A DNA stretch of 60,983 nucleotides, filler included, from Dimargaris cristalligena (taxonomy: Eukaryota): assembly GCA_003614675.1 (NCBI GenBank). It is 14 parts of 14 records of this genome, joined end to end, with 100 filler letters (N's around TTAATTAATTAA, not from the genome) between each part and the next. Parts side by side here need not be neighbours in the genome. Positions count along the whole stretch, not along the records: positions 1 to 4,296 come from ML003802.1; positions 4,397 to 8,690 come from ML003803.1; positions 8,791 to 13,075 come from ML003804.1; positions 13,176 to 17,447 come from ML003805.1; positions 17,548 to 21,812 come from ML003806.1; positions 21,913 to 26,176 come from ML003807.1; positions 26,277 to 30,538 come from ML003808.1; positions 30,639 to 34,895 come from ML003809.1; 6 more parts are not named here. One strand, given 5' to 3'. The notes under the pieces are model-generated. The model did not search any database. It was not told where the DNA came from and saw nothing but the letters and a program-made list of their open reading frames with translations. Of the stretch, positions 325-56,848 are shown one piece after another. The stretch's first letter is position 1. Each line of letters opens with the position of its first letter. Made by a program: the position numbers and the translations under genes.

Positions 325-905
325 TATTACCCAGGTTATCCACTCTTAATCCATCAAGTGTCCCGGGGATAGGCTTCTAATAGTAGGTGGGGCTTTAGAC
401 TCAGCTAAGCATGCTACTAGTGTTAGGGAGGGGTGTAGTGCTAACCAAATAAAGCAAGTATGGATAACTAGGTAAGGGATGTGCAGTGATGCATACTTAC
501 AGTTAGTACAAGAGGGTGAGCATATATAAGTGTTTATTGGGGGTAAACTAAGGGGTAAGAATAAGCTGAGGAAACTAACTGGTCCCAATGGGTCCAGTTA
601 TATATATATGGGGGACTACTCCAGAGGGGGGTCCCAAGGGAAGAATTACATAACTAAACTATGGATAAGTAAGCCAGTCAGCTAGTCCTTGTATTAGGAA
701 GACTTCCATGGGAACCAGAAGACTCCACAGATTGACAGTGGAGTGATTAGTACAAACTCAGGGGAGCCCAACTGGGGGGTTTATAAGCAATAGGTGATAA
801 CCCCATAGTACTGGGGGTGACTATGGGGGATTTAATATGGTGCTATAAGGCCTACTATGGTGGCCAATCATTCACCTGGATTAGGTCAGATTAGAAGGGG
901 TGACA
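325..905 (-). mobile_element. Solo LTR, family A (about 580 bp), TSD TCACT
   Basis: Termini TATTAC (mutated TGTCAC) ... TGACA. TCACT flanks both sides (320-324, 906-910). Homologous to copies at 2978, 22025, 25899, 28666, 39406 and 56745. Strand is given relative to the other copies only. Confidence 0.9.
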
Positions 906-1641
906 TCACTCGAATGAAAATGTTAATAAAACTAACTATATAAAGTTTTTAACTAAAGTAATCTAATATGAAAAATACTTATTTGGAAGCTCAAAAGGTT
1001 GGTCCTTGGCAACCACAACTTGAAATATATAACCCAACTATCCACAGTAGTTATAGAGGTAGTTTTATTATAAAAGAAAGATAATAGAAAAATAATACCC
1101 AATAATACAATACTAAAAAAATGACACAGAAAAAAAGAGGGGAAAAAGTTTCCCTTATATGCAAAAATATGTGCACTAATGCATTATTGATTGCTTGCAT
1201 GCATAGCCCAATCAAGTGCATCAATGGTGCATATTTAATCTAAAAAAAATCCAAGACTTTTTGCTCTATAGCCAAGAGTGCTAAACCATTCTCAGTATAA
1301 GGCAGAGAATTATTAAAACCAATAAAAGGAAAGTAAGCCTGCATAATTAATAAAAAGTAAATAGTGAATTCACATAGTAAAACTAATAAAAGAAGGGAGA
1401 GAATAAAATCAAATAACTACTAGCAATCAAGTATGAATATGCATATCCAATTATAGGGATAGCATGTATCCACCAATAGAAATATAAATAAAATTAAAGG
1501 AAAAATTCATATGGAAGAAATGGGTTAAAAGGGAAGGGAAAAAAACTGGATATACCAGATAAAAAAGGTGCTTCATACCTTGTATATAAATATAATAAGT
1601 AAATAATAATAGTGCATACCTGTGGCAATCAAGGGGATACT

Positions 1642-2977
1642 TTACCTTGCCACACCAGACCCACACAAGGAGAAGGATGGCACCTGGTTGGCTTTGGGAT
1701 TTTTTAACACCTGATAGCTGTTAGTGGAAGTGATGTGGGGGGTCCATCCTTTGTCATACATTTTAATAAACCCATCACCAGTTACTTTACTCACATGCAA
1801 TATAGGAATTGTGTTGGGATTTGTAATAAGTGGGGGTTCAATTGGTACATCTTTGATGTTATACACAACCATGGCCATGGCCCTGGCTGCTGCCACATTA
1901 GTGGCCTTGACATTGAGGGTACACTCATCTGCTTGGACAAGGGTAATATTACTGGTCTGTACAGAATCAATAGTAGAACAATTGGTCAGTGAGCTGGATG
2001 TGGTTTTGGCCTGGATAACCTCCACATTGGTGAGTGCAAACAATTTGAAGATACCCTAGGTACTAGACTATATATGAGGTGACAGACTTATGGGGTTAGT
2101 AAACATGAGTCTGCAGCCAAATATTGTAGGTGGTTCCATACTTCCTACTGTGATGACCAACTGCCCTGTAGCAGGGGATCTGGTCATCCAAAATGAAAGC
2201 TGACCTTTGTTACCTGCAGCTGCAACTATAGCAACTCCCATGGTGGCCAAAGAGTTGCTACAAAAGGCATCTATATCAGAATTGAACCCCAATGGAGTGG
2301 AAATGAAAATGTTAGTGACCTTCATGCCATCAAGGTAGGCCATCTGCAGGGCTTTTATAAGGATGGTGCTGTTGGTCATGGTAGAGCAGCCCATGATGCA
2401 ATACACCCCCAGAGTTGCACCCAGTGCCATGCCCTTGAAGCTACTGTTGTTTCCTGTAATAATCCTGGCAACATGGGTGCCGTGGCCATTACATGTGTCC
2501 AAAGGATTGGCCTGGGGTTGAGGGGTGTTATATCTATTAAAGGCATCACCCACCAAATCATAGCTGTAGCACACCTTACAGTTGGTAGTATTGAAGCAGT
2601 TACCAAATGCCAGATGGGTATAGTTGATGCCACTGTCAATGATTCCAACTTTGATGCCCACACCTGTTAACCCATAGTTGGATGTCAGTGTGTTGACTCC
2701 TGTATGGTTGTGGCTGATTTGGACCAGCCTGATATTGGTAGTCTATTAGCAGGACCTCAAAGCCACAACACTGTCTTGCATTATGATCTGCTTGGGAATG
2801 ATACTCTCTACTAAATCAAATATAGAGATGACAGCTTGGTAGCAATCATCCACCACAATATGCAAGCCTACAAACACATCACTGTAATTGGAGGCTAGCA
2901 TAAATGTAATTGAGGATGCCTTTAAGTCATTCACCAATAAAGTCCACTGATCAGTTGTTTCAGACAGATTATATGTT
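1642..2977 (-). pseudogene. Decayed subtilisin (S8, PA-domain-containing, pyrolysin/C5a-peptidase-like)
   Basis: GIKVGIIDSGINYTH (catalytic Asp), NGHGTHVARII (catalytic His), AAAGNKG, PA domain (NITLVQADECTLNVKATNVAAARAMAMVVYN) and a propeptide remnant at 2746-2937. Broken by stops, no GTSMA Ser region seen, 5' end abuts an LTR. Confidence 0.9.
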
Positions 2978-3561
2978 TGTCACCCAGGTTAACCTCTCTT
3001 AGTCCATTAAGAGTCCTGGGGGTAGGCCTCTAATGGTAGGTGGGGCTTAGGCTCAGCCAAGCAGGCAACTAGTATTAGGTAGGGGTATGGTACTAACTAA
3101 ATAAGGGCTCAAGCCATTGGATTTGATGCAAGGGACATGCAGCAGGCACACTTACTGGTTAGTACAAAGGGATGAGTATATATAGTGATTATTGAGGATA
3201 AACTATGGAGGTATGAATAAGCTGAGGCTTCTAACTGGTCCCAATGGGGGCCAGTTATATATACATGGGGGACAGCTTTAAAGGGCAGTCTATGGAGGAA
3301 GGTACTACTAAGACTACTAAGGATAAACTAGCTAACCAGATAATAGAGGGTATAGAAGACTTGGTTGGGAACTGGAAGAGTTGTTAGATCAGCCCAGGAG
3401 TGATTAATGGAACTCCAGAGTCTGGAAAGGGAAGGGTTATATGATATAGGATGATCATATAGTACTAGGGGTGACTATGGGAAGGTAAATATAGCACTAT
3501 AAGGCCTAATAGGGATGGTCTATTATTATACCTGGATTAAGCTAGGTTAGAAGGGCTGACA
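2978..3561 (-). mobile_element. LTR family A copy truncating the subtilisin pseudogene
   Basis: TGTCACCCAGGTTAAC ... GGGCTGACA, full-length homology to the other family A copies. No matching TSD (ATGTT vs CAATA). Confidence 0.88.
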
Positions 3562-4296
3562 CAATATATAAGTGGTTAAAATGAGTGATCACAGGTAGAC
3601 TAGATAAACTAACATAATTGGTGGAAACAGAATAGAATAAAAAACCTATTAGGACATATTTTCTAACAGTGATATTGATATATATTTTCATAGAAGGGAA
3701 CCTTAAGCCCAATATGATATTATAACCAAGTAGGCTGAATAGGGCTGAAATAGTAATATTAAACAACCAAGGATCACTAAGTAGGGTAGGAAACTAAAAG
3801 ATAGGTGAAGTAGTGCTCATAAAAATAGTACCAAAATTAATATTTTATTCAAAGACAGGGTATAATAGTGGGCCGCTTGGGGAGATACACCTTATCCCTC
3901 AGAGATGAGTTGTTGTTCTTGTGCCATTGGTTTAAGGTCGCCTTATTCTGGCGGGGGGTTGAGTAGGTGGCGCCATAGTCCCGGAGACCTCCCTAATTCG
4001 GGTGGGGAGTAGAATGGGGGGGATCGGTCACTCACCTCTGAGTGGGAGCAGCCTCCCCTGGTTGCAGTATTATGCCCTACACAAATGGCGCCCTAGAAAA
4101 AATGGAAAGAAAGAGGGAAATAAATATAGAGCAATCGCTGATGTGCAAGCCAGTTGGTTCCATGGGGTTCATTTTGAAAAGGGAGGAGCGAGGAAATTCT
4201 TGTTGGACTAGTCAGGCTAGTGCCCAATCCGACTTGAGGCACTTGTGTAACGAAAAAGTCTTCGTAATTTATATCCATTTTGAGCGGCGTTAGGGA

Positions 4297-4396
4297 NNNN
4301 NNNNNNNNNNNNNNNNNNNNNNNNNNNNNNNNNNNNNNNNTTAATTAATTAANNNNNNNNNNNNNNNNNNNNNNNNNNNNNNNNNNNNNNNNNNNN
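4297..4396. other. Artificial contig-joining spacer (N-run + TTAATTAATTAA + N-run), first of 13
   Basis: Identical 100-bp spacers with a six-frame stop linker at 4297, 8691, 13076, 17448, 21813, 26177, 30539, 34896, 39251, 43604, 47956, 52304 and 56645. Intervening contigs shrink monotonically from 4296 to 4239 bp. Confidence 0.98.
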
Positions 4397-5367
4397 ACAA
4401 GTCGCAGAGTCCCAATCCACAATACCGGCTAATTTATTAATAAAAGGGGTACAATTGCCAGCATTTAGTACTATTGGTGGGGTGATATCTATCAGATGGT
4501 ACCAATACTGTTTTGTTTCACATCTCTTCTTCGCCCACCGCCTATGGAATTATTGTCAACCCCACTTTTATAAATTTCTACAGTCCCTCATTCTTGTATG
4601 AATATCAGCGCTACCTCTCATTGAAAACTGTTGGACGGGGAGTGCAGCACTTGTATCAGATATTAATTGGCAATAGCCCAAAGCAAAATGGAATGCGGCC
4701 CAGAAGATAAGGCCCGTGTGAGAAGAAAGGCTCGTAATGTGCTCGATTACTTGGCCCTCCGCTGTTGGATCCATCTCGCGTACACTCCCATCATAGCCCC
4801 AGTCGACCCAAACCAATATTGCCCCTGGTTTAAAGTGATACCGGGTTATTGCTACCCATCCCTGTGTTTGGTCAATGTCGCAACAAGTCGGGACCAGCCC
4901 CTTTCTGTCGTGCGGCATACTGACTATTCTTTATAAAGCCAAGTCCCACTGTTCAATCGATTCATTAGTTTGCTGAAATATCGTTTATTCTCGCTGATTT
5001 GGAGTTGGCCCGTGGTCAGTCCTAGTTTACAACTATGTCCTTTAATAGTTAATAATGCCTTTCTACTCTTATAAATAAGATTTTTTTCTTGCTCCATCTC
5101 ACCCGTTCCAAATGTGTAATTTAGAAATTTATCTGGATTCAGTTAGCCCGGTTTAGTGTACCATTACTCCTTTGGTTTCATCCCAGTGGTCCCTGACGCT
5201 ATCATCACATCACATACTTTGTCTTCGCTTAGTCTCGATATTTTTCAGCCTCCTACTATAATTATTTGATCAATTAAATATACTCCTCCAAGATCCACCC
5301 GGCGTCTACTTACCACCTAAACTCCGAGCCTTCAGGCATCGGAGCCAATGTACTTGGCCTTATTTTC

Positions 5368-8300
5368 ATGGACCGAGCCACCTCAACAACAGATTATACT
5401 CCGTCTCGGTCACCCGCACTCTCTCCCATTTCAACTCCGCCCGGCTCGGCCCAGGAAACTCCGCATGGCTCTCCTCCACACTCCCTTAGACGCCGTCCGA
5501 AGGCCCTCCCAGACCGCCTACGCCCTCACCGCTCCCGGTTAGTATTTCGTCCGCCCAGCTGTACCCCGTGGCACAACTCTCCGGTTCATCATTCCCCAGG
5601 TACCCACCGGAAGCCCCGGTCGGTTCCAGCTCATTCGGCGCACTCGTCCATGGATTCCACCAGTGCCCACCCCATGTCGTCGGAATCACAGTCCGGTTAT
5701 TTTGACAAGTCCACCCAGCCAGCGGGCGTGTCGTCGTACAACCGGGAGGGATCTTGCCACTCGTCCGAGGGCCGCAAGTCCTTAGAACGTACCCATTCTT
5801 CTTGGGCGCCTCAAAATCCCCACTCAACGGGTCAGTTATCGGGCCACGCGGAGAATCCCACGGACTCCTGCACCTACGGCACATCTCACTATCCGACTAG
5901 TTCTGTAGAACGCATAACCGAGCAGTATCAGGAACCCAGGTCCTCCCTTGGGGAACCAAATCGATTTTTCAGGCACAACCAGACGCCCCCCTTTCGTTCG
6001 CATAGTCCTAGTCCGGCCCACTCTTGGTCCTGGCGGCCGTCATCCGATTCTAATCATTCGGATTCGTCTTCCCGATCCTCATCATTGTCTTCCCCACCAC
6101 TAACATCGCCACCACCACCCCCACCAAGGTGCTGGGCCCGGCTGCGGGCCTCTCTGTCTGCAGAAGCCCAGGTCGTAATTGCTCGTCTGCGCTCCCCGGG
6201 GGCCATGACCAGGTTGATCCGCTCCGTTTTAACCTTTGCTATATCAACTCTCTTCATCCTGATCAGTAGTATTGAGAAATGGATTGGCAAGTATTCATAC
6301 CTTTTGCCTTTTTCCACTATATTTCTCTGTTCCGCTCCGACTTTCGGAGCCCACGTGGAAGCTATGGTCTTGGCCTATATTGGCCTGGCTCTTTCTTTCG
6401 GGTACACCCTGTTGGGTAGGTTTGCCGCTGAGGAATGTAACCGCCGTTTTCTACACAGTGGTGACCACGGGGCTCGGGCCATTTTGGCCGTTTGGCTTTT
6501 TGTAGGGTTATTCCTAATGAGTCTGGTCCGGGTGCGTAATAAGCGATACTCCACCCCAACTGTCTTATTTTGCTTCCCCCTGATTCTAACGATGACTGCT
6601 AAAGTGGACAACACTACCGGAGCCGTGGCCTTCGTATGGGCCTATTTTAAACCGCTTATATTTGGCGCCAATATCGCTTTGGTTTCCGGTATCGTCTTCT
6701 TCCCCGTTTCGGCCATTTTCGTCCTGGAGAAGCACGTTCTAACTGTCATGTGCCGGGTTCTCAAAGTGTTAGATATCACCACCAAAGCCTTCCTACTGCG
6801 GGACTCATCTGCCATCCTGACACCCCAGCAGTTCAGTTCCCACATGGCCGAGGTTCGGCAAGCCATGTCGGCCTTAAAGGAAGCGACCCTCGAAGCCAAG
6901 TACGAAATATCCTACTCCAATCACAAGCCCGAGGATTTTGACGCCATCCAAAAGACCCTGCTCCTCATCTCGCAGCATCTAGGAAGTATGACACTATCGG
7001 CCCAAAATGAGCGCTATTTGACGAATGCCCGGGACTATTTGGACCAGCGCCAGCCGCCTAGTGGAACTCATCCATACACCCCGGTAGGCACCGTCCCCAT
7101 CTCCATCTCTAGACCTTCGGCATCCCAGTCGGAGCTTGGTCCACCCTCACCTTTAGCCATGTCCTTAAGAACCACCCAGTCTCTGGACCAACCTGTCTTG
7201 GCTTGTCTGAACCACTGCGTGCCAAAGGAGCTGGCCAAAGCCGATCGGAAAATTTTCATGCAGCTTTTGCATAGCTTCGGGCCGTCCATCCAGGAACTTT
7301 CCTACCTCTGTGAATTGACGCTTGACCGGTGCGTTCACCGGTTTATCAAAAACTGCGAGGGTCTCACTCAGTCTAGCGTGACGGTGCGCATAGTGAACGA
7401 GTTGCCAGACGACCTACTGATTCACAACTACTCCGTTATCGAAGCCAGGTACCAGAAGCGGGCCGGGGATCAATCCCACGGGTTTTTTGTGAATCTCTAC
7501 CGTTATCTCATAGGGTTACATACGGAGTCAAAAGAGGCGAATGCATCGTCGACGGAGGTACCCCATCATGGAAAACCGCCCCCCCCCTGCGGCAGAAAGG
7601 GGAAGTCCTCGACCCGAACCCGGGTCTCCATCGGCCCACCCGCGAACCAGTACCAGCAGTGTATCCATTGAGATTGATGACCAGGGGAATTTCAATCGGG
7701 TTGGCCGGCCCCGACGCCTATCCCAATTGTTTGCGGGACCGAGGATGGATGTCCCAGAGAATCCAGCCGTCCCTGGGGGCGAGAAGGCCGCCGAGACAAC
7801 ATCAGGTGGAGAAGGCTCACCCACCTCGGCCCCAGCGCCAAATCCAACCCACCCTGGGCTCCGGGATGATCAAATCCCCCATCCCGTTCGGTCCAACGAC
7901 CCCCTATCCGATGCGGATATGCAGGAGTTTGTCAATAAGATTCAGCGAGCCATCGCCCGATTCGATAAATTGGAGGTAACGGCCATTCGCAAAGTATACC
8001 GACACACCATGAACGTGGTGGACCCTACTGGGCCTCGTGAATCACATCGGGAACCCGGGGGTACTGGGGATGGCCATTCCGACTCGGGCAACCTCGCCTT
8101 GCCTTTCGAAGAGCCACGAGAGGAGGCCTTTCTGATTTTCTTTTTTCTATTTAGTCTACGCGAAGTGGCCCTCCTTCTTTCCACCTTAGTAAAGCAGATT
8201 CACACCATGCAGCTCGCCCGTTCCAGAACCAAGCGCCTGTGGGTACGCTGGAACAGCGATGCCCTAGGGATTCTCCGCCATTTTGTGCTCTACATGGTTA

Positions 8301-8690: not shown

Positions 8691-8790
8691 NNNNNNNNNN
8701 NNNNNNNNNNNNNNNNNNNNNNNNNNNNNNNNNNTTAATTAATTAANNNNNNNNNNNNNNNNNNNNNNNNNNNNNNNNNNNNNNNNNNNN

Positions 8791-11512
8791 GGAAGTCCTA
8801 TCTCGCCTCAGAAAAGCCTCCTTATTTGCCAAATTAGACAAATGTGAATTCCATAAATCAAGTGTGGAGTTCCTTGGTTACATTGTCACAAACTCTGGTA
8901 TTGAAATGGACCCATCTAAGATTGATTCAATCCAATCCTGGCCAATTCTCCGCAGTGTTAAGGATATCCAGTCCTTCCTAGGTCTTGCCAACTTCTACCG
9001 CTGATTTGTTCGAAATTTCTCATCAATTACAGCACCACTCACTCGCCTCCTTCGTAAGGATACTCCATGGGATTGGTCACCCGAAGCCCAAGCCGCCTTT
9101 GATGCCCTTAAATCTGCATTTACATCAGCCCCAGTTCTTCAATACTTTGACCCGTCCCAGCCTATAACTATTGAAACTGATGCCTCTGATTTTGCCATTG
9201 GTGGAGTCCTCTTGCAACCAGATAATGATGGTCTTCTCCACCCTATTGCATTCCATTCTTGCAAATTCACTCCTGCAGAACTGAACTATGAAATTTATGA
9301 TAAGGAAATGTTAGCAATAGTGGAGTCTTTCAAGGTATGGTGTGCCTACCTTGAGGGTGCTCATTTCCAAATCACAATGCTCACCGACCATAAGAACTTG
9401 GAATATTTTACCACTACAAAATCCCTAAATCGCCGCCAAGTCCGTTGGGCCCAACTTTTGGCTAACTATAACTTTGTTATTAAGTATATCCCTGGCCATA
9501 AAAATGGCAAGGCTGATGCCCTATCTCGCCGCCCTGACTTTTTCCCTAAGGAGGGGAGTGACACCTTGTGTAATAGTTCACAAGCACTACTAAAGTCCAA
9601 CCAATTTATTATTTGTGCACTCGATACCTTAACCTCCTCCTCCCTTCTTATTGATGATATATGCACTAGTTATACATCTGATCCTGCCCTAGCCAAAGTA
9701 TTAGCCTCTTTACGTGAACCATTACTCAATTCCCCAACCGAAAATACCAATAACCTACTACCTTTTTCCCTGGTTGATGATATTATTCTTTACGATGGAC
9801 TTATCTATGTCCCTGATACTACCAGTATCAAATTATGCTTACTCCAAGATCACCATGTCTCCCCAACTGCTGGCCATTTTGGTCGAGCTAAAACCCTTGA
9901 ATTGCTATCCCGGAATTACTACTGGCCCAAAATGCGCCAATTTATGGAAGAATATGTATCCTCTTGTGACCAATGTAATCGCTGCAAACCAGTTCGCCAC
10001 AAACCTTATGGACTACTCCAGTCCCTTCCAATCCCTGAAGGCCCTTGGAAATCAATCTCTATGGATTATATTGTTGGCCTTCCAGCCTCCAGCGGCTTTA
10101 CTGCACTACTAGTAGTTGTTGACCGCTTTACTAAAATGGCACACTTTATTCCAACCACTGATAATGTTGATGCCCCCACTACTGCCCAATTATTTCTAAC
10201 CCATATCTATAAATACCATGGCCTCCCTATTGATATTGTTTCAGATCGAGGCTCCACCTTTACCTCCCATTTCTGGTCTGCCCTGATGGAACTCCTTCAT
10301 ATCAAGTGCAACTTATCAACTGCCTTCCACCCCCAATCAGATGGCCAAACAGAGCGAGTAAACCAAGTCCTAGAACAATACCTTCACCTCTACTGTGACC
10401 ACCTCCAGGATAATTGGGTTGATCTCCTTCCCCTTGCTGAATTTTCTTACAATAACTCAAAGCACTCAACTACCAAAACTAGCCCATTCTTTGCTAATAC
10501 TGCCCGTCACCCAATTGCATTACCAATGTCTGCTGCAGTTGCAAAATGTAATACACCCGCAGTAACTGATTTATCCTCAGAACTAATTGAGGTTCATAAT
10601 TCTTTAGTTAAGAATATTGAATCTGCAAACCACCGGTATGCTACCTTTTACAATCGTAAACACCTGCCTGAGCCTGACCTGTCTATTGGCTCTAAAGTCT
10701 GGCTCCTTCGAAAACACATCAAGACCACCCGACCTAGCTCAAAACTTGACTACAACCGCTTAGGTCCTTTTACCATCCTTGCCAAAGTTGGCCAACGGGC
10801 CTATCGCCTAGACCTACCACTATCAATGAGTATACACCCTGTATTCCATGTCTCCCTCCTTGAACCCCTTATTGGGAATACTATTCCTGGTCGCACTCAA
10901 GTTCCTCCACCCCCAATTGAGGTTAATAATGAGTATGAATATGAGGTTGAGGATATCCTAGATAGTCACCTCCATTATGGAAAATTACAGTATCTAATTG
11001 ACTGGAAAGGCTATGATGCCAGTGCTCGCACCTGGGAACCTGCTACAAATATTGTAAAGTCCCCAGACCTTGTCCATTGTTTCCACCACCTGTACCCTAA
11101 CAAGCCAGGACCTCGCAGAGCTCGGCCTTCAAAGGGGGAGCTACTGTCATGACCGGTAAATTTGAACTATATAAATAACCCACCATATAAGTAAAAAAAC
11201 CCATATCAACAAATGGGTAAAATTAATATCCAATATTACCAAGATATATACCCATCACCCTACTATGTTTTATTTCCCAGTGTTTATTCCTCATATTATC
11301 TAGTTACTGATTTGTATCTATTAGTTATTATCATTCTTCCCCTGCCCCTTGGGTTGGGATATAACCCCAACCATTTTCCCTTAGCTTGCTCTTCAGCTTG
11401 CAACTCCTCTTTGTTTTCCTTTTCTGTTATCTAGTTTAATAAATCCTAATTCCATCCTTCAAAGTCCCGCCTGTCTTATGGTACCTGGCCTCATCTTTAG
11501 CTCATCATAACA
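8791..11512 (+). mobile_element. pol: Ty3/gypsy chromovirus, 3' half (RT C-term, RNase H, integrase, chromodomain, PPT, 3' LTR)
   Basis: Frame from 8792 reads [42 protein letters not shown] zinc finger, VVVDRFTK/SDRG/QSDGQTER integrase core, GPF module and chromodomain EYEVEDIL..YLIDWKGY..TWEP. Premature TGA at 9002 within GLANFYR*F. Confidence 0.97.
11145..11512 (+). repeat. 3' LTR of the chromovirus (368 bp) preceded by a polypurine tract
   Basis: PPT AAAGGGGGAG at 11131-11140. Termini TGTCATGA ... TCATAACA form an imperfect inverted repeat. The pol stop codon lies inside the LTR. Confidence 0.8.
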
Positions 11513-13075
11513 GTTCAACACACTAGGGCTCCCAACCATGACCCTCCATACACAATGATATCTGATTACCTCCAATGGTAGTAGAAAAGGCATGTGCAAA
11601 TGTGGCCAGTAGTAAATCTTAAGGGGTAACTCACCATTGGGGGGCTAGCTGGAATAGAAGAGTATTGGTAGACTTAGAATCAAACTCCAAAGACACAAAG
11701 AGGTGAGCCACTGGATATTCCTCAGTTCTTATATCCAGTGGAGGCAGCAGATAATAAATATCAGCAATATGTTGATCTGGACATATCTGCATAGGCCAAA
11801 TGTCTGCAGAGAGAGTACTGCAGTAATCAGCCAATTGAGTAGCCCAGGTTTGGAACAACATTATCTTTGATGGAAGGGGCTTACCAAGTAATAGTGAATT
11901 TAAATCCTCAATGAGTATCCTCCAGGAAACTAAGTCCACCAGAATATGGTGAATAGTGAAGAAGAATTGGGTATTGAGTAGGTCAGCTGGGTTGTGGATA
12001 AGTGCTGCAGCAACTACTGGGCCAATAATTAGATTGAGACTCAATTGGACTTCTAGAATAAAGGCCAAATAGTCATCAGGGTCCAGGGTCTTCTCCAATA
12101 CCAGAAGATCAGTGTTTGTGGCTGTTTCAGTAGGGATTGACTGAGTACATTTCTGTCCATTTTTACCAAGTTGGAACCTTGCCCAGAGAATATCATGGTG
12201 GTTAAATAAGGCAATAAGAGCATCAGTGAGAGTGGATTGGGATAGGGGGAAATATGGACCAGCCTTGAAAGAAAATGATTAGTTGAAATAGCAGGGATTT
12301 TTAAAGTGAAGATTAGCAAACCAGTGCTGAATGGGGGTGAGAGCTACATCCCCTGTAACTTGGCCCTGTCAAGAAAAACCAGTGCCCAAAATGGTACTGG
12401 TTTCTTGCAGGATGTACAGAACCTGTTGATTTAGTTTAGGGTACTGGTAGATCAAAGGGACAGTAATCTGGTAACCCAATGGCTGATACTTGGATACAAG
12501 TAGAATGGCTAAGATTGAATCTCCACCAATCCTGAAGAAATAGTCTAAACATCTAATTTGATCTGCAGTCTTCTGCAGTACCTGGGCCCAGGCCTGTTGG
12601 AAGCTGTGTTCAATACTATTCAGTAGTTGATCTTCTGAATCACTTGGGGATGGTTGGTCTAAAAGGTGGTTGATTGGTGGAAGGGCTTTATGATCTAGGT
12701 TGGTTGGGTAGGCATACAGACAAGGGTATCCTGTACTATCTTTGCCACATGATTTTTCAGCCCAGTGAAATAGCCTACAACATTTTCTATTTCCCCGAGC
12801 TCAATGCAAAACCCACACAGTTTAACTTGGTTGTCAATCTGGCCCAGGAATCCAATTATGCCTTTGTGGAGCCATCAAACATGATTACCGGTCTGGTAAA
12901 CTTTCCCAGGACCATGGGGATTATTGATGAATTTAGCTCGCGTTAGTTCGGGTAGGTTTTGGTAACCTCAGGCAAGACCAATTCCCCCAATAAGCAACTC
13001 ACCAGGGACACCCACCGGCGCCAATTGAAGCTGGTCATCCACCACTGAGTTGGTCACATTTTGAAGAGGCCGGCC
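11513..13075 (-). pseudogene. NRPS pseudogene fragment, adenylation-thiolation-epimerization (A-T-E)
   Basis: Minus strand: GLA*GY (A6), VYQTGN (A7), LGQIDNQVKLCGFCIELGEIE (A8), PCP DYFFRIGGDSI at about 12516-12545, E-domain HHILVDLVSWRILIEDL. Stops and frameshifts present; cut by the gypsy LTR. Confidence 0.92.
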
Positions 13076-13175
13076 NNNNNNNNNNNNNNNNNNNNNNNNN
13101 NNNNNNNNNNNNNNNNNNNTTAATTAATTAANNNNNNNNNNNNNNNNNNNNNNNNNNNNNNNNNNNNNNNNNNNN

Positions 13176-17765: not shown

Positions 17766-17776
17766 CATATAAAAAG
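17766..17776 (+). promoter_or_regulatory. TATA box of the NmrA-like gene
   Basis: TATAAAAA about 165 bp upstream of the ATG at 17932, which sits in a CACCATGG context. Confidence 0.55.
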
Positions 17777-21812: not shown

Positions 21813-22024
21813 NNNNNNNNNNNNNNNNNNNNNNNNNNNNNNNNNNNNNNNNNNNNTTAATTAATTAANNNNNNNNNNNNNNNNNNNNNNNNNNNNNNNN
21901 NNNNNNNNNNNNTGGGTGTGCGTGTACAACTGCCACCTGCCTACCTCAGCCATCCCTTGAAAATATGGGGGGAACTGGCATTCCTCCCCAACTGCTGTGC
22001 ACTTTCTTCTGCTACCTTACACTC

Positions 22025-22604
22025 TGTTGGCCCTCCTAATCCGACTTAATCCAGACCTAACAATTACACATCCATATTAGGCCTTATAGTACCCTATTAA
22101 CCCACCTATAGTCATCCCCAGTACTATAGGATCCCACTTATTATTAACCCCACTCATTCTGACCCTAACACTTGCACTCCAAGCACTCAACTTTCTGATC
22201 CAAGACTCTTCCAGTTCCCATGAGAGTCTTCCCAATGTGAAGCTATCCAGTTGTATCCTTTACCTATCCATACCTTAGTCTTAGTAGTATTTCCCTTGGG
22301 ACCTCCCTCTGGAGCTGTCCCTGTATATATATAACCAGGCCCTCCTGGGACTGGTTTAATCCCTTAGCTTTATTCATATCCCCCAGTTTACCTTAATAAA
22401 CTCTATATACACTCACTCCCCATCTAACCAGTAAGTGTGCTGCTGCACATCACTTGCATTTGTCTGCACTTATCCTTTATTAGTTAGTACCCTGCCCCCT
22501 ATCCTAATGCTAGTAGCCCACTTGGCCAAGCCTAAGCCCCACTTTCCATTAGAAGCCTATCCCCAGGACTCTTAATGGACTAAGAGTAGTTAACCTGGGT
22601 GACA
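22025..22604 (+). mobile_element. Solo LTR, family A, TSD CACTC
   Basis: TGTTGGCCC ... GGGTGACA, with CACTC at 22020-22024 and 22605-22609. Confidence 0.93.
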
Positions 22605-22939
22605 CACTCCTTATCTATTGCAACCCTGTATTAGGATGGATAATCCAACTTACATGTAGTTCAATTAGTCTTTGGAGAGAAGTAGGCTAGGATTACTGTG
22701 TAGTTTGTGACTCTGCCCTAAAAACCCAAATCAATTTCGGGTCATTAGGACTAACTATATAGTCTCTAGTCATTATATTATTGAAGTAAGTCGTTAAACA
22801 AGTTTATTGTGCCAAACCCTTTCATCCCAAAGAGTGCCCATCTTATAGAAGTTATGATGGCCGCAATTGAGGGGTTCCAAAAGAACGTTTGTAAAGAACA
22901 AGACAGGGTTAAAGTGAGGGCAGGAAGAGAGAAGTAGCG

Positions 22940-49909: not shown

Positions 49910-50705
49910 ATGTCTGCCCAGCGTGAGTTCCTTACACTGACTTCTCCCATTGCTCCGGTCAGCGAGTTTCTTCCACCCCTTTGAAGTGCCCAGTCCACTG
50001 GTGGTAATGAGCGCCTGGGCTAACCATATTCTTATCGTATATTCATGTACACTCCTACTAACTGTTAGCCGCCACTGTCTCCAACAACGCCCCTTCTCAG
50101 CCTAAGGAGCAGAGCAATGAAGAGCAGGGTCGTTTTATGGTAGTGTTCAAGCCCGATACCCCCGACGAGGTCGTTAAGCAGTCTATTGCTGACGTTGAGA
50201 AGCAGGGTAAGCAGTCCCTCACCACACAGGGCGGTCTATGTTTACGAGTGGTATTATAGCCAAGTGCCTGAGTTCTCCCCACCATATCCCCCCCCCCCAA
50301 TCCATTGTGCTATTGCGTCCGTTGGCATTAGATATTACACACATCTCTAATACCATGCTTGCCCTATGTGTTTTTCGGTTCATTTATATTCACATGGTCT
50401 TAGGCGGTACAATTCACCATGAGTTCAGTAGTTTGATGAAGGGCTACTCCGCCACTCTTCCCACCGGCTTCTTTGGTAAGTGCAGTCTGGCTAGTTATAC
50501 CTAGTGGCTTTGTCTGTTGCCCCCATCGTAGTTCCCTCAGTAATCTCCCTTTGCTTAACCCTCTTACTCACCTTGTAATTTATATTGAATCTACACCCCT
50601 GTCTTGGTGGCTATATATGTTATCCCCTGCACCTCACTAGCCCAACTCCAGGGCCACGAACACGTCAACTTTATCGAGCCCGACCAGACGGTGACCACCC
50701 AGTAG
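49910..50705 (+). CDS. Peptidase inhibitor I9 (subtilisin-propeptide-like, POIA1/Pbi2 type), 4 exons, 95 aa
   Basis: Exons 49910-49922, 50069-50206, 50404-50475 and 50641-50705, donors GTGAGT/GTAAGC/GTAAGT, TAG acceptors. Product MSAQPATV...RFMVVFKPDTPDEVVKQSIADVEKQGGTIHHEFSSLMKGYSATLPTGFFAQLQGHEHVNFIEPDQTVTTQ. Confidence 0.92.
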
Positions 50706-51698
50706 ACTCCCAGGCAATCCAATCAATCGCTGTGTCTTTTGAACCTCTAATAGGAAACTGGCCCATGACCTTCTCTCCCAATATGGTGTCTTGATTTCCA
50801 CATTAGATATTTTGCCTATAGCTTTACCGAATGAGCCTGGTTTCCGGACGGCCTCTTTTTGTTTTTATTATCCATACGACTTCCTTGTACCATTTAAAAT
50901 GTATCTCCATGTATCAGTGCCCAGTGCCATTTGGCGTATACATACATATAACACTTGAAAAAAATGTTGAATATTTCTCGCTGCTATTTGCTAGCTTTTG
51001 GGGGGTTGAATTGGGCCACTGGCTATTGCACTCTCACCTGCTGGTCACGCCTTCACCCCCACGAGCTATATACCGTTCGGAATAAAGTGCCATCTATCCC
51101 CTCTTCTCTTGTATCCCAGAATCTTCGGTGGGGAATATTGGCCAGTGAATATCCTCTATGTGAGTGAGGCCACCCACTTGTTCCAGCGGAATCGTGGTGG
51201 TGAGCTACAATGGGTAGTATATCCCCCGGAATGGGGGGTTCTTGCCAAACAATACGTCACGATGATTAATTCAACGGGGACACAGCCCACCCCGCGTGCC
51301 AAGACGATTTTGTGCACATAACTATTGATTGTAGCAGCAGCATATACGCAATGCCTCGTAAAGCGGGGCGGTGTTTCTGGTCCAAAGTTGACACTTGCAC
51401 AAGTCCTAACTGCTGGACCAGCCATGTAGGGACCAGCGCTGCTATTTCCCTTTGCTGCCTGTTCCTTTAATACTCCGAATTCCTTTATCCAATAGCGGCC
51501 TGAACTGAATCGTGTCTGATTTTGGACAATACCTCTGAATTCCCTTAGAAATCGGGGCACCGAATTTGTCGGGTCCACTGGTCTAGTCCATTTCTCTCGT
51601 GAATTCCCTCATCCGCCTAGTAGTCTCCACCACCACCGCCGCCTCCTCCTCTCTACTGGCAGGTGATACCCCCCATTTCGCTCCAGCTTCATTCCCAG

Positions 51699-52210
51699 AT
51701 GGGTGACCCACCGGCGGCTTCTTCACCCTCCGTCCCTCGACCCAGCCCATCCGCCACATTCACCGATGCCGCGTCCGGCCGATCCTCGCCTTTCCGCGGG
51801 CAGCCCCCCAAACTGCTGGCCACCCATAGCAGCTCCAGCAGCACCCTGGCCGAACCTGCGGTGGGCACCACCGTAGTCCATGCCCAAGGCCGGCCATTGA
51901 GCCCGACCAATCGCCCCCCCGAGTTTGGTAAAATGCATCTCTTCGCCCTTCGGCTGTTACTCAATGTACCCGTCAAACGACCGTATCTTATCCTTACTCT
52001 GGGTGACCAGGTGTTTCAAACCTCCGTATCGGACCGGGCCACCGGGGAGTGGAACGAAGGGTTTGAATTCCTCATTACCTACCACACCCAGCTTTTCGGA
52101 ACCTGCCAGCTCGACCTGTGGGACTCGGTCACCCTGCTGCCTGACCGCCACATTGGGCGGGCCGAAATTAAACTGGCCCTTCTCGATGGGCTACCTGCGG
52201 ACTTTACTAG
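51699..52210 (+). CDS. C2-domain protein, first exon, truncated
   Basis: RPYLILTLGDQVFQTSV..GEWNEGFEF..QLDLWDS..DRHIGRAEI, followed by a GTAATT donor at 52211. Confidence 0.8.
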
Positions 52211-52403
52211 GTAATTCAACCATGCTCATGTTTTATACCCATTGTTAACCCTTATGTATACTGGTACTTGGTGGCGTGTGGGAATACCTCTTGCTTAGAA
52301 AGGNNNNNNNNNNNNNNNNNNNNNNNNNNNNNNNNNNNNNNNNNNNNTTAATTAATTAANNNNNNNNNNNNNNNNNNNNNNNNNNNNNNNNNNNNNNNNN
52401 NNN

Positions 52404-53438
52404 AGCAGCGGTTCCCAGAGCTGGACCAGCGTCGGATGGACTTGTAGATCGGGGTACGAGGAGCGCTCCAGTTTGGTCAAAGGCACTAGGTAGCCGGTCT
52501 CCAAAAGAATGGGGATCAGCGATTGGTTGATGACGTCGGTGGTCAGACTTTCGGCAATGGCCTGGGCGGACCGGAACGCTTCGGCGCTCCCTTCGAAGTA
52601 CGCTTCCTGGGAGCGGGTGGTGGCGGCGTCGGGGTTTTCCATAAAGGCCAGCTGGTGTTCCCGGTAGGTGTCCAGCAGACCCCGTAACAAGGCCCGGTCC
52701 TCGGATATCGAGCGGGGCATCTGGCATTGCCAGTAGTCCGTGCGTAGCCACTCGAGGGCCTTGAGGCAGCCCTTGCGAAGCTGGAACAGCGGCGGTAGTT
52801 CCTCGTGGGTGGCCGAATGGCGCAAATCGACGAACCAGTTGGGCATCCCCAGCCGGATGGAAATATTGGCGGTGGACTGGGCGTAAAGGCCCTTTTGTTC
52901 GGAATCGACCACTCCGTTGAAGAACCGCACAAAGGTCATCGCGTAGAGGTGGCGCATTTGGTCCCCTGAAGGTGCCCCGGGGCCGGGGTGGTCGTGTAGT
53001 TGGGCCTCGACAAGGCTAGCGGTGGCTTCTACGGCGAGGGGCAGTCGGCAGCGGCTGGCCCAAGCTTTCACCTACCAAGATAGAAGGTGGTATAGATCAT
53101 GTCGGTTAGAAATAATTGGTTATATATTGAAGTTGAATGGTGAGCAAATGGCTAAGACGTTAAAAACACCGCGGCTTTAGTAGTTGCGTATAAACTGGGT
53201 ATATATTATCACTGAAGCAAAAGCAAGGTGCGCCTGGCGTTAGTCACCTCAACTGGAAATGCCGTGCTGGTACCTAGGGTCGACATATCCCTCCAGTTCC
53301 AGGCCTGTGGCCCCTACTTACTCGTTTAACCCCGAGGGCCTGCTTTTGGCGACACGGGGGGGTTGGGTAGAGCCATTCGTACACGTTCATGAGTTCCTGG
53401 TTAGTGGTCCAGGGTACCACCCGGGCTGACTGCGACAT
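52404..53438 (-). CDS. LAS1: Las1 pre-rRNA ITS2 endoribonuclease (HEPN), 3'-truncated
   Basis: Exon 1 at 53438-53322 (MSQSARVVPWTTNQEL..KR) with GTAAGT donor; exon 2 from 53071: VKAW..LPLAVEATA, YAMTFVRFFNGVVD, PNWFVDLRHSATHEELP (RxxxxH). Confidence 0.95.
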
Positions 53439-55879
53439 GCTGGATGCTTAACAACTAAGGGGAATTGGGAATGAGAGTCGGTTCGTCAAGAATGAGCACC
53501 GGAAGAAATTAGACGGGTAATTCCGAACCCTTCTAATTCGGCTAATGCCTATCTGTTGGTTTTTTTTATGTTCACTATAATTTGATGGTTGTGGTATGAC
53601 TTGGATATAAAATACCCCGCCTAAAGTAGAGTCTAAGTGGGCGAACTAGGGGAAAGCGGATTTGTCCAATCCAATGACATAAGAGTAAAGTCTATGATTT
53701 AATAATGTACGCGAAGCCGCGCGGATCACGTGACCTTTAGTAACCTAACCTTAAGGCCCTTGAACTGTGCCCATTACCAGTTACTTGGTAGCGCATTAGT
53801 ACAGTGTGGGTTAAGCCCATTTCATAAAAGGTTGGGACTGATGAAAAAGACGGCAGAATGTTAAGGACCAGGGTTAGGACTGGGGATTACGATGATGATA
53901 TGGGCATTCCTATTATCCAATTGTGTCTGGGTTTAACCAGTGTGGCAAAGGTGCTTAGCTATTGTTTTATAACCATACTATTGCTACCTAATTGTTCAAC
54001 CCCAAATACTACCCCGCTTGTGGGGAGAGGGGACGCGCTACAATGCAGCAATAGAGGTACGCGTGCCCATTTATATCTGGTCAGCATAAGAGGTTGTGCT
54101 ATATTCCAGCACTTAAGCTAGACGAGGGGCTGGGCGGAATGATTTGAATATATCGCCAACCACAAAAGCAAAGTCAATGATGTCACCCCGCCCCGGCGCC
54201 TGACCAACTCGGCCCAAACAGCCAAAGAGCAGAGTGGCCCAGAAGTGGGCCCCTTAAATAAAGCGGCAATTGAAGAACTCCGAACCCAATTAATTCAACA
54301 AAGGCTAAATTGCTAATAATCTTCAAACAATAAACCGACGTCTATTCCTTTTGATTAATTTTTAAGGGCCAGCCTGGGGCCTAATGTAAGACTGATAGTC
54401 AAAGTCACCCAGTCCAATGGAGACTGTCCCGCCCAAATAGCCTCCGGTATAAAGGAAGGGGACAGGGCAGATATTATATTAGGAATGGTGCTATAGCGCC
54501 ATCACCCCAAAACTCAGCATTAGATCCTCATGAACTTTGAGCTGGCCTAAAGTTGCCAGCCAGACAGCAACCCTTCAACCTGCAGGGATTTCTTAAATGA
54601 CGGGCTGGGAAGAGCCAAGCAGGCCTTGGTAATCCCCCAAAGAAGGGGGGTTAGTAGTGTGGCTTTGGGCCGGCCGGCTACACCGCTCTCCAACGCACGC
54701 GCCTTGGCCCGGATGTTGAAATCCCCTAGAACGCCAACTAATTGTAGTGGGACGCTGACACCACCCCGCAGGTCCTGCCTGGCATGAACCGCCTATTCAG
54801 CCACTTACTTGGTTTGGCGTTAATAGATGGGAACTACCCATTCGCTGCTTTACACCAGGCGCAGCCTCTCTGGCCAGTTTTAATCGAACCATCGGGTATG
54901 CCATAGATACCTACTGGTAAGTGCAGAGTGGTAGGCACACCGGGTATACTAGTTGGCTCGCGAGTTGGTGGGTCCGGGGCGATTAGTTCAAAATAGACCG
55001 AGTGACCCGTGAACTGGTCCGGTAGTAGCCTCTCCCCTTCTACCCATGGACTAAGGGTTACAGGGTGCCGCTGAACTCGACGCGGGGCCCAGAGCCCGTT
55101 GGATGAATGGCGGCCATTCGCGGAAGCCTGTTGAACCCAAAGCATTCTTTTAAAAATAAACAATGCAAAGGAGATGGGCATCCTAGACATCCTAAACCAC
55201 TACCACTCATGACTAATATTCCTGAGCGGAGGTGTCAGGTTTTGGGAATGCTAACAGCAGAAGAGCCCACTACATTAATAGGCGGCGTGGTGAACATCGT
55301 AAGGAGGGACTATGAACTGTAATACATTTATATTTATATTTAGCCGTCGCTCATTCTTTTACTGGTTCGGTCTCTACTTTGTTCGTTAGTGGCTAGGGCT
55401 TCTTTGGAATCCCCTTCCGCTGTTGTTTTGTTTCGAACTTTCTCTGTTCTCTCCTTCGGCTCTTTCAGGGTTAATGATAAAGTAGCCTGTAGTACTACCA
55501 CTACCTCCCACCAGTTCCGCTGTAAGGCACAGCCAACACTCTCTCGCATTCCTATTGTATTATTTTGACCCTGGTCTGGTCTGACTTGAACTGGCTGGTT
55601 CTCCCGCCATTCCGCGACTCTCTCTCTCTCTTTCCCCCGGTCTTTTATTTACCCTTTTCAATCTCTCTCTCTCTCTCTCTCCCTCTCACCTTCACCCTCT
55701 TCTTTCCCTATATGCACCGGCCTCCAGACATTCCTTTGAGTCTTCTCACTGCTTTCCTTCCCCCTTTTCCTTCCGCCTAGCCGACTGTTGCTTTAGTCTT
55801 GTCCATTAGCATATACTCCTTGGTTTGTTTCCCCCTTTTCTCACTTCCCATATTCCCTCCCCTTCCTCGCACCGTCACC

Positions 55880-56635
55880 ATGGGCGACAGCCCCAAGCAC
55901 AAAACCATGCTGACCCAGCTTACCGACCTGGACGACCACGACTTGGACGAACAGGCCGGCCTCTTCCTGCGACCCAACGACGTTACTCCAGGTCAGGCCT
56001 ACTCCGTCGAGTCCGACCCGAATGCCCCACTAGCCGCCCGTGAGGACGGCGGGGCCCACGACGACTACCAGCGCAGCAGTGCCTCGATTCCCGCCTCCCA
56101 GCCTAACGCCCGTACCGTGCACGCTACTCCCTTTTTCCAGCCCTCGCAGGTCTTCCCTGACATGATGGACATTGCCTCCATGGTGGACCGTAGCGCTGGT
56201 CTTTATAGCCCCAACGCCAGCCACCGGCTGTCCCGTCTCTCTACCTACGGCTGGAACGGCACCACCGCCTCGTCCATGTGCCTGAATCAGTATGCTCCGC
56301 CGTCCGTACCCGCCACACCGTCCACCACTCTTCCCCCGTCCGATCCCCCGCTCTTCCCACGTGTGACTTCCGTGCCTCAGTCCGAGGAGTCCCCCCACGA
56401 CAGCCCCTCCGACGATAAGACCTCCCAGTCACCCACCCCTTTTGAGCGGGACAGCTCCGTGTCCCTGGTCCAGGGCAAAATGGCCCTCTCCGACAATGAA
56501 AGTGCCGCTACCCTTATGCCCCCCTCCGAGGCCCCCGTCATTATTTCCTCGGCCCTGTCCCGGACCCCCGATGTCACTGGCAAGCGCCCCGGCCTCCACC
56601 CGCAACTGACGATTGGGATCGATGGGTTTGACTGA
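55880..56635 (+). CDS. Ser/Pro-rich hypothetical protein, probably incomplete
   Basis: CACCATGG start after long CT tracts, C-rich codon usage, stop 9 bp from the contig end. Confidence 0.55.
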   Translation: MGDSPKHKTMLTQLTDLDDHDLDEQAGLFLRPNDVTPGQAYSVESDPNAPLAAREDGGAHDDYQRSSASIPASQPNARTVHATPFFQPSQVFPDMMDIASMVDRSAGLYSPNASHRLSRLSTYGWNGTTASSMCLNQYAPPSVPATPSTTLPPSDPPLFPRVTSVPQSEESPHDSPSDDKTSQSPTPFERDSSVSLVQGKMALSDNESAATLMPPSEAPVIISSALSRTPDVTGKRPGLHPQLTIGIDGFD

Positions 56636-56744
56636 CGCTGCCATNNNNNNNNNNNNNNNNNNNNNNNNNNNNNNNNNNNNNNNNNNNNTTAATTAATTAA
56701 NNNNNNNNNNNNNNNNNNNNNNNNNNNNNNNNNNNNNNNNNNNN

Positions 56745-56848
56745 CCCTAACACTAGTAGCCCGCTTGGCCGTGTCCAACGCCCCGCCTACTGTTAGAAGC
56801 CTACCCCCGAGACTCTTGACGGACTAAGAGTGGTTAACTCGGGCGACA
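56745..56848 (+). mobile_element. 3' end of LTR family A, CpG-retaining copy
   Basis: ...GACGGACTAAGAGTGGTTAACTCGGGCGACA aligns with the other copies but keeps most CpGs. Confidence 0.88.

Follow-up and report, generated by a model that had tools for sequence, protein, structure and literature searches.

Which process has stripped CpG sites from the repeats of Dimargaris cristalligena: the deamination of methylated cytosines, or a genome defence that resembles RIP? The question arises from a family of LTRs, here called family A, in which sites that appear to descend from CpG now read CG, TG, CA and also TA. D. cristalligena, a dimargaritalean mycoparasite, is an early-diverging fungus (Kickxellomycotina, Zoopagomycota), and not a Dikarya species with known RIP, a possibility that a preliminary description of this DNA had raised. 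In protein comparisons, the best match is a D. cristalligena protein, and those ranked after it come from other Dimargaritales. To our knowledge, RIP and RIP-like defences are regarded as confined to Dikarya, and very little work has been done on 5mC in Zoopagomycota. In the main texts of the literature on methylation or RIP in Dimargaris or Zoopagomycota, we found no analysis of D. cristalligena repeats.

The family A LTR and its insertions

The window, that is, the whole 60,983-nucleotide stretch analysed, consists of 14 small contigs (c1 to c14) of ~4.3 kb with linkers between them (Table 1). The LTR copies sit on different contigs, and the range 325–56848 given in the preliminary description is not a single locus. 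Because they are on separate contigs, we regard the copies as independent insertions.

Family A consists of old, mostly solo LTRs from a high-copy LTR retrotransposon family. The LTR is ~580 bp long and is present in the window as four full and three partial copies with 69–81% identity; nhmmer and sensitive blastn found no additional copies there. Hundreds of copies exist genome-wide, and in sequencing reads for contig 1 the summed word depth is 9,000–142,000 on the LTR vs ~140–185 for single-copy contigs. The termini read 5′ TGT... and 3′ ...ACA, and two copies (c1a and c6a) have 5-bp target-site duplications, perfect in c1a; the flanks of c1b hold no recognisable duplication. The tree of copies is near-star, with terminal branches of 0.14–0.27 and internal branches of 0.02–0.07. 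A search for the coding part of the element returned no Pfam families in the 3.3 kb after c6a (six frames, stops as X), and the chromovirus pol, compared with all contigs by tblastn, matches itself only. The different repeat that follows the partial LTR on c6 is also present at 26277–26375, in reverse orientation.

Table 1. Positions of the linker, LTR copies and pseudogenes in the window.
Feature	Position	Strand	Description
Linker N44-TTAATTAATTAA-N44	4297–4396	.	First of 13 identical linkers
LTR copy c1a	325–905	-	Solo LTR, TG...CA-type ends (nhmmer, blastn); target-site duplication AGTGA at 906–910 and 320–324; CpG o/e 0.04, TpA o/e 1.48
Subtilase pseudogene	1615–2760	-	S8 + PA domain, single-copy (Pfam, translation, paralogues P0121–P0124)
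LTR copy c1b	2975–3556	-	CpG count 0
NRPS pseudogene fragment	11559–12950	-	PP-binding + condensation domain; CpG o/e ~0
LTR copy c6a	22025–22604	+	Solo LTR (alignment); target-site duplication CACTC at 22020–22024 and 22605–22609
Family A LTR, partial	25899–26010	+	Only 5′ ~100 bp, then a different repeat (25996–26094)
LTR copy c7	28666–29250	+	Most TpA-shifted copy; TpA/ApT 1.77, composite RIP index 1.05
LTR copy c10	39399–39739	+	3′ ~340 bp
LTR copy c14	56745–56848	+	Last ~105 bp only, at contig start; retains 8 CpG

CpG decay in repeats and single-copy pseudogenes

We find that CpG o/e is 0.00–0.3 in repeats vs 0.7–1.0 in genes. By contig, it is 0.11–0.29 in c1, c3, c6 and c7 and 0.70–0.95 in nine others, with c14 intermediate (0.51; its 5′ 2 kb at 0.24–0.39). 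The CpG-poor segments outside the LTR have a reciprocal excess of TpG and CpA, with (CpA+TpG)/(ApC+GpT) at 1.3–1.5. In a young repeat pair of 94% identity, CpG and TpG are exchanged in 4/5 differences.

All four sites that the preliminary description had offered as examples of CG, TG, CA and TA are found when the final ~107 bp are aligned for six copies: GGCGACA at 56842–56848 vs GGTGACA (three copies), GGCAAC and GGTAATA; AACACT, AATGCT and AATACT; GCCAAG, GCTGAG, GCTAAG and GCCGTG; and ACTGTT, ACCATT and ACTATT. Over the whole LTR, where each column holds 4–6 copies, there are 78 pairs of neighbouring columns in which all copies have a pyrimidine followed by a purine. We scored a pair as CpG-type, and thus as an inferred ancestral CpG, where CG was present or TG and CA co-occurred. 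This applies to 21 of the 78 pairs, whose 108 cells read CG (9), TG (37), CA (35) and TA (27). The other 57 pairs comprise 28 invariant TA, 6 invariant CA or TG, and 23 polymorphic CA/TA or TG/TA.

Two pseudogenes provide polarised controls for the substitution spectrum. The subtilase pseudogene lies between c1a and c1b, has premature stops and a CpG o/e of 0.02, and is single-copy: the depth of its own contig is ~157, and its paralogues are only ~83% identical at the DNA level. In this pseudogene and the NRPS fragment together, C→T/G→A accounts for 72/119 single-step changes. The mutated fractions are 40/43 visible cytosines at CpG (31/32 in the subtilase pseudogene alone), 15/170 at CpA, 9/179 at CpC and 8/107 at CpT. 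The LTR sites, the CpG o/e values and the comparison of contigs agree on CpG-directed hypermutation of repeats, as originally proposed. CpG-specific decay is the main process, and its pattern in the sequence fits 5mC deamination.

A further flux towards TpA in the LTR

TA occupies 27/99 mutated cells, where 5.5–7% would be expected if the second step ran at the CpC/CpT rate. A star-tree likelihood gives per-copy rates of a = 1.39 at CpG, b = 0.41 for CpA→TpA and c = 0.082 at CpY, with reverse rates of 0.03–0.06, and equal rates (b = c) are rejected by a likelihood-ratio test (2dLL = 31, p = 2.5e-8). For this single family, with 4–6 copies and 78 + 198 sites, the bootstrap estimate of b/c is 4.9 (CI 2.8–7.7). 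With c14 as the ancestor, a role that we gave it because it is the least decayed copy, mutated CpA stands at 19/40 vs CpY at 14/180. In sequencing reads for contig 1, the 22 best-supported of 805 variants are private to the reference and fall at sites that are not hypermutable, and they are uninformative on CpA.

TA thus reflects real second hits, which are ~5 times as frequent as C→T in the CpC/CpT background, and its frequency does not match the background transition rate. In the comparison that the preliminary description had suggested, CG→TA does not exceed the product of the single-hit rates: the product, 0.34, predicts 36.7 cells, and 27 are observed. The preliminary description had also explained the second hits by CpA/TpG targeting or by two-strand deamination. 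These two are inseparable here (0.8 log-likelihood units); a model without a CpA excess, in which direct CG→TA has the single-hit rate, fits nearly as well (-lnL 327.8 vs 326.9).

On balance, and with modest confidence, we favour CpG decay by 5mC deamination together with a faster CpA/TpG→TpA step that would stem from LTR-focused non-CpG methylation or deamination, and not RIP of the Neurospora type. Near-saturating, CpG-specific C→T/G→A decay extends across the repeat-rich compartment, including single-copy pseudogenes adjacent to LTRs, and spares the gene contigs. It would proceed by deamination of 5-methylcytosine at sites of maintained CpG methylation. TA then arises when the TpG or CpA that remains after the first hit undergoes another transition. 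Within the LTR family, this step, and CpA/TpG→TpA generally, has ~5 times the rate of C→T at CpC/CpT and is several-fold slower than at CpG, with the same rate on both strands and no dependence on the 5′ base. Strand asymmetry is indeed absent (11 TG/TA vs 12 CA/TA sites, and near-equal TG and CA cells at CpG-type pairs), and the 5′ base has no effect at CpA (ACA.24, CCA.29, GCA.25, TCA.28). We would attribute this extra component to methylation or deamination of cytosines outside CpG (at CpA), at a lower level and concentrated on the LTR itself. In one report (PMC11258239), 5mC is described as almost exclusive to repeats in Linderina pennispora (Kickxellomycotina), and non-CpG 5mC as existing in Phycomyces.

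Several results count against this explanation, among them the fit of the direct CG→TA model and the CpG-free segments without a TpA shift (c1 900–1600 and c7 26277–28665). CpA methylation tied to heterochromatin generally would be expected in the pseudogene between two LTRs, where the CpA excess is at most 1.5–1.7 fold and not significant, and the contrast in CpA excess between LTR and pseudogenes is itself borderline (z = 1.95, p = 0.051). Plain CpG decay with background mutation might be considered instead, the TpA excess being peculiar to one TA-rich family through site constraint, hidden subfamilies or small sample size. Every other CpG-poor segment has the classical signature without a TpA shift, and the reconstructed ancestral LTR was already TA-rich (TA 59 vs AT 41). 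Furthermore, CpA and CpY do not differ significantly in the two pseudogenes (8.8% vs 5.9%; OR 1.53, p = 0.26). Only 2/9 “CpA” changes in the subtilase pseudogene are unambiguous, and the remaining 7 could be former CpG sites. We nevertheless find this simpler account rather unlikely. The excess persists in all seven subsets and alignments, including the 5′ half, the 3′ half, the last 107 bp, a second alignment and the set without c14 (b/c 3.7–6.2), whereas 120 null simulations, in which the estimator was unbiased, gave b/c of 1.0–1.2 and a 2dLL of at most 6.5. The near-star tree also speaks against it. Intermediate-frequency patterns are commoner at polymorphic non-CpG pyrimidine-purine sites (10/23) than at polymorphic pyrimidine-pyrimidine sites (9/57), which indicates recurrent hits rather than shared ancestry.

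RIP and other known systems

On both classical RIP indices, the LTR copies score as positive (TpA/ApT 1.41–1.77, (CpA+TpG)/(ApC+GpT) 0.72–1.01), and the composite RIP index is positive in the five copies tested (0.39–1.05). These values are largely inherited, because the ancestral LTR was already TA-rich, and we rejected the composite index as evidence of RIP for the same reason. In six other segments (c1 900–1600, c7 26277–28665, the chromovirus pol, the c6 internal stretch and both pseudogenes), the index is negative (-0.20 to -0.67). The first two of these, of which c1 900–1600 is another high-copy repeat, are CpG-free and high in CpA+TpG without a TpA shift. Among the segments tested, high TpA/ApT with low (CpA+TpG)/(ApC+GpT) is a property of the five family A copies only, and not of repeats generally.

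Repeat-focused C-to-T mutagenesis outside Dikarya, hitting CpG first and CpA second on top of ordinary CpG methylation, seems to us a doubtful account, whether RIP-like or through siRNA- or homology-directed non-CpG methylation and deamination. If it took the form of a RIP-like defence that deaminates cytosines in repeats and prefers CpG to CpA, it would explain why the CpR-biased C→T excess is, as far as visible, limited to a family with hundreds of copies. An eLife 2024 report (PMC11105155) gives an index-based hint of RIP for Entomophthorales, also outside Dikarya. Such a defence is equally improbable on our data, as CpG saturation is the same in single-copy pseudogenes, no TpA shift is seen in another repeat of high copy number, the LTR owes most of its index values to its ancestor, and no burst-like differences are evident among the LTR copies. 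Large recent gene-family expansions, which efficient RIP would prevent, are moreover retained: PMC6784888 reports 27 NRPS genes and many subtilases in D. cristalligena, and our own comparisons show paralogues at 76–88% protein identity. In a recent k-mer screen of the whole kingdom, no group but Ascomycota had RIP-like signatures (PMC12543289). An APOBEC-like deaminase that edits retrotransposon cDNA before integration is very improbable, for although the excess occurs in a retroelement LTR and is absent from host pseudogenes, such editing is strand-asymmetric while TG/TA and CA/TA sites are balanced, there is no 5′ neighbour preference, and the mutated states vary between copies on a near-star tree.

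The closest likeness to our preferred reading is found in Basidiomycota, animals and plants, where deamination depletes methylated transposons (DNMT1/DNMT5-type CpG methylation) of CpG. There, too, repeats have a CpG o/e close to 0 and genes a normal one, TpG and CpA are in reciprocal excess, the great majority of polarised changes are C→T/G→A within CpG, and decay extends into adjoining unique DNA. The comparison differs in that methylation of D. cristalligena repeats is deduced from sequence, and strict CpG methylation does not predict the ~5-fold CpA/TpG→TpA rate over CpC/CpT in the LTR family. RIP in Neurospora crassa and other Pezizomycotina, which depends on RID/DIM-2, shares the C→T/G→A load on repeats, some CpA→TpA bias and the positive composite index of the LTR copies. 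In D. cristalligena, however, CpG is hit much more than CpA, whereas Neurospora has the opposite preference (a = 1.39 or more vs b = 0.41 in the LTR; 93% vs 8.8% in the pseudogenes). Mutation is not restricted to duplicated DNA, since the single-copy subtilase pseudogene is saturated at CpG; other repeats are index-negative, gene-family expansions are kept, and the host lies outside Dikarya. Of the two options in the preliminary description, our data favour the methylation-driven one, and they do not support the “RIP-like” label in its Neurospora sense.

Pucciniomycotina show a CpG-biased, “RIP-like” hypermutation of transposons, with TpCpG as the target in Microbotryum. The likeness lies in CpG-centred transitions in the retroelements of a fungus without classical RIP, but the 5′ T preference of Microbotryum is absent from the family A LTR (ACG.64, CCG.50, GCG.57, TCG.62). 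The Entomophthorales signal (PMC11105155) rests on composite-index values and comes from the same phylum-level group (Zoopagomycota), with positive indices in part of the repeats; in the D. cristalligena LTR, by comparison, the index is largely ancestral and the spectrum is CpG-dominated.

If the TpA excess fails to replicate genome-wide, the finding reduces to ordinary methylation-driven CpG decay. The window shows a D. cristalligena genome of two sharp compartments, with normal CpG in genes and none in repeats. Genes from the expanded subtilase and NRPS families are among the decayed sequences, so that the decay may shape the turnover of both families. For an early-diverging fungus, the extra flux to TpA in this high-copy LTR offers a concrete and inexpensive handle on cytosine methylation outside CpG or on deamination directed at repeats.

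LTR family A and its host

The 60,983 bases are several loci and not one single locus: 14 small assembly contigs (4,296 down to 4,239 bp) lie end to end, split by 13 identical linkers, so that any feature running across a linker is an artefact. On contig 8, a 561-aa prolyl-hydroxylase-like ORF best matches a Dimargaris cristalligena protein (95% identity over 98% of the query), followed by Tieghemiomyces, Dimargaris xerosporica, Dispira, and D. verticillata (52-57%), and then by Basidiobolus and Mortierellaceae. The nearest protein atlas clusters are from Zoopagomycota and Mucoromycota. Protein matches among Dimargaritales thus identify the host as a dimargaritalean zoopagomycete outside Dikarya, the early-diverging fungus supposed in the preliminary description.

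Using blastn and nhmmer, we delimited one LTR retrotransposon family of ~580 bp (LTR-A; termini 5' TGT and 3' ACA) in seven pieces. The flanking 5-bp duplications of copies c1a and c6a show these to be solo LTRs from independent insertions. The copies share 69-81% pairwise identity, and their maximum-likelihood tree is close to star-shaped (terminal branches 0.14-0.27, internal 0.02-0.07). At a likeness of 80% or more, contigs from two public runs of this organism placed 3,359 and 2,825 pieces on contig 1. Summed word depth is 9,000-142,000 for LTR-A versus ~140-185 for single-copy contigs, which indicates hundreds of copies. Positions 1-1700 reach 16,000-190,000 in public contig sets; they are mostly very high-copy repeats beyond the LTR, none with a second copy in the window.

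Features of the window
Feature	Position	Strand	Remarks
LTR-A copy c1a	325-905	-	duplication AGTGA on both flanks, perfect
LTR-A copy c1b	2975-3556	-	
LTR-A copy c6a	22025-22604	+	duplication CACTC on both flanks, perfect
LTR-A piece	25899-26010	+	first 100 bp only
LTR-A copy c7	28666-29250	+	
LTR-A copy c10	39399-39739	+	3' 340 bp only
LTR-A copy c14	56745-56848	+	last 105 bp only
Subtilase pseudogene (S8 + PA domain)	1615-2760	-	single copy between two LTRs, premature stops
NRPS fragment (PP-binding + condensation domains)	11559-12950	-	several stops, CpG o/e near 0
NRPS fragment (PP-binding/condensation domains)	57307-57654	-	several stops, CpG o/e near 0
Chromovirus-type Ty3 pol	9005-11152	+	intact 715-aa ORF; RNase H, integrase, SH3, chromodomain
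Short shared repeat	1-57 / 39351-39407		at/near contig ends, 96% identity
Short shared repeat	55-172 / 11143-11264		at/near contig ends, 81% identity
Short shared repeat	25996-26094 / 26277-26375		at/near contig ends, 94% identity
First linker	4297-4396	.	N44-TTAATTAATTAA-N44; 12 further places

The five longer LTR-A copies (334-587 bp) hold 0 or 1 CpG apiece (observed/expected, o/e, 0-0.07). The c14 piece retains 8 CpG in 107 bp, which shows that the ancestor was CpG-normal. Lying beside 2 kb with CpG o/e 0.24-0.39, c14 appears to have inserted recently into older sequence that is poor in CpG, and the family may therefore have been active recently. The Ty3 element (CpG o/e ~0.4) is possibly younger and still coding, and may be either separate from LTR-A or tied to it. 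Contig breaks fall inside repeats. An array with 9-bp and 63-bp periodicity (35181-36486), inside long ORFs open on both strands of a CpG-normal contig, may be repetitive coding sequence.

Compartment-wide decay of CpG

CpG-directed hypermutation of repeats, as first proposed, is borne out by the older LTR-A copies and by CpG-poor contigs. CpG o/e is 0.11-0.29 in contigs c1, c3, c6, and c7, intermediate in c14 (0.51; 5' 2 kb at 0.24-0.39), and 0.70-0.95 in the remaining nine. Outside the LTR, lost CpGs persist as TpG/CpA: CpG-poor DNA has (CpA+TpG)/(ApC+GpT) of 1.3-1.5 and TpA/ApT of 0.8-1.0. In the young repeat pair with 94% identity, four of five differences are CpG<->TpG. The 81% pair has a CTAG versus CCGG difference, a further CG/TA pair.

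Paralogous proteins from this species served to polarise the changes in two pseudogenes. For the subtilase pseudogene (P0121/P0122 at 76-77% protein identity; P0123/P0124 more distant), 88 of 329 polarised columns differ, 78 of them by unique single steps (G>A 31, C>T 18, A>G 6, T>C 5, transversions 18), and mutation has hit 31 of the 32 CpG cytosines that are visible. The longer NRPS fragment, compared with P0163 and backed by P0164/P0165, has 41 single steps among 66 differing columns. Counting only cytosines whose change shows in protein, the pooled mutated fractions are 40/43 (93%) at CpG, 15/170 (8.8%) at CpA, 9/179 (5.0%) at CpC, and 8/107 (7.5%) at CpT, with no significant CpA excess over CpY (CpC/CpT) in these two pseudogenes (odds ratio 1.53, p=0.26). 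The closest annotated paralogue of the NRPS fragments, P0162 (88% identity), carries some identical CpG-type replacements, and some annotated NRPS "genes" may thus be decaying copies.

The dominant process acts specifically at CpG and throughout the CpG-poor compartment. Its pattern is that left by deamination of methylated CpG, which would imply methylation in D. cristalligena. In Linderina pennispora, also of Kickxellomycotina, 5mC is known to lie almost exclusively on repeats (PMC11258239).

Excess TpA in LTR-A

All four motifs that had illustrated CG, TG, CA, and TA outcomes recur in our alignment (GGCGACA at 56842-56848). In LTR-A, all copies agree on a pyrimidine followed by a purine at 78 pairs of neighbouring columns, of which 21 are CpG-type (CG present, or TG and CA co-occurring; cells, copies x sites: CG 9, TG 37, CA 35, TA 27), 28 invariant TA, 6 invariant CA or TG, and 23 mixed CA/TA or TG/TA. 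TA makes up 27 of 99 mutated CpG cells versus 5.5-7% predicted with a second hit at the CpY rate, so an excess over background is real within LTR-A. The proposed test of whether CG->TA exceeds the product of single-hit rates comes out negative (36.7 cells expected, 27 seen); loss of CpG does slow the second hit.

A four-state likelihood model (CG, TG, CA, TA; star tree, ancestral state unknown) was fitted jointly with a two-state C/T model of 198 columns with consecutive pyrimidines on either strand. Fitted rates per copy are 1.39 for CpG C->T per strand, 0.41 for CpA/TpG->TpA, and 0.082 for CpC/CpT->T, with reverse rates of 0.061 (T->C at TpY) and 0.029 (TpA->CpA/TpG). Equality of CpA and CpY rates is rejected (2dLL=31.0, p=2.5e-8). 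The bootstrap ratio is 4.9 (2.8-7.7), and it stays at 3.7-6.2 in the 5' and 3' parts taken separately, in the last 107 bp, with a second alignment, after removal of c14, and in the four full copies alone. In 120 null runs, simulated from the reconstructed ancestor with the same coverage pattern, the ratio came out at 1.0-1.2 and 2dLL peaked at 6.5; simulations at the fitted value recovered 4.6. With c14 as ancestor of the last 107 bp, where some CpA sites are former CpGs within c14 itself, the five older copies show C->T in 35/76 cases at CpG, 19/40 at CpA, 9/95 at CpC, and 5/85 at CpT. The effect is strand-balanced (11 TG/TA versus 12 CA/TA sites), with no 5' neighbour preference and no obvious concentration in one LTR-A copy. 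Its odds ratio is 3.45 (2.36-5.03) in the LTR versus 1.53 (0.74-3.15) in pseudogenes, a borderline difference (p=0.051).

CpA/TpG targeting or two-strand deamination had been offered as the cause. Second hits above background agree with this, but a model lacking the CpA excess, in which direct CG->TA change is as fast as a single hit and more CpG sites are hidden, gives nearly as good a fit (-lnL 327.8 versus 326.9), so targeting and tandem conversion are not separable. By our reasoning, one round of deamination on both strands cannot alone give TA in one daughter duplex; either reading would thus need a hit at a non-CpG cytosine.

Relation to RIP and other systems

LTR-A decays much as transposons do under methylation-driven CpG loss. 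cDNA editing is expected to be strand-asymmetric, and such asymmetry is absent from LTR-A. Microbotryum-type hypermutation follows a TpCpG rule, which also fails here. The RIP-like label, in the Neurospora sense, does not hold: CpA is not the preferred target, mutation is not confined to duplicated DNA (single-copy DNA is also hit), and repeats as a whole show no index shift. Classical RIP indices (0.39-1.05 in LTR-A copies) are misleading for this family, because its reconstructed ancestor was already TA-rich (TA 59 versus AT 41, few CpA/TpG). All other CpG-poor segments have negative indices, among them a different high-copy repeat (900-1600). Efficient RIP would also be incompatible with the large, recent gene-family expansions that D. 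cristalligena keeps, which include 27 NRPS genes, most of them the sole gene of a short contig, and an enlarged set of subtilases (PMC6784888). Two reviews assign RIP signatures to Ascomycota and Basidiomycota (PMC13297926, PMC7862722), a kingdom-wide k-mer screen gives RIP-like enrichment in Ascomycota only (PMC12543289), and for Entomophthorales there is an index-based hint of RIP, published with caveats (PMC11105155). Our literature search found no analysis of Dimargaris repeats.

The initial observation is therefore confirmed, and its interpretation survives in part, as CpG-directed decay with TA above background. Most of the signal represents ordinary CpG decay, here in a new host. The ~5-fold extra CpA/TpG->TpA flux in LTR-A, as measured in six copies of one family, is statistically solid.
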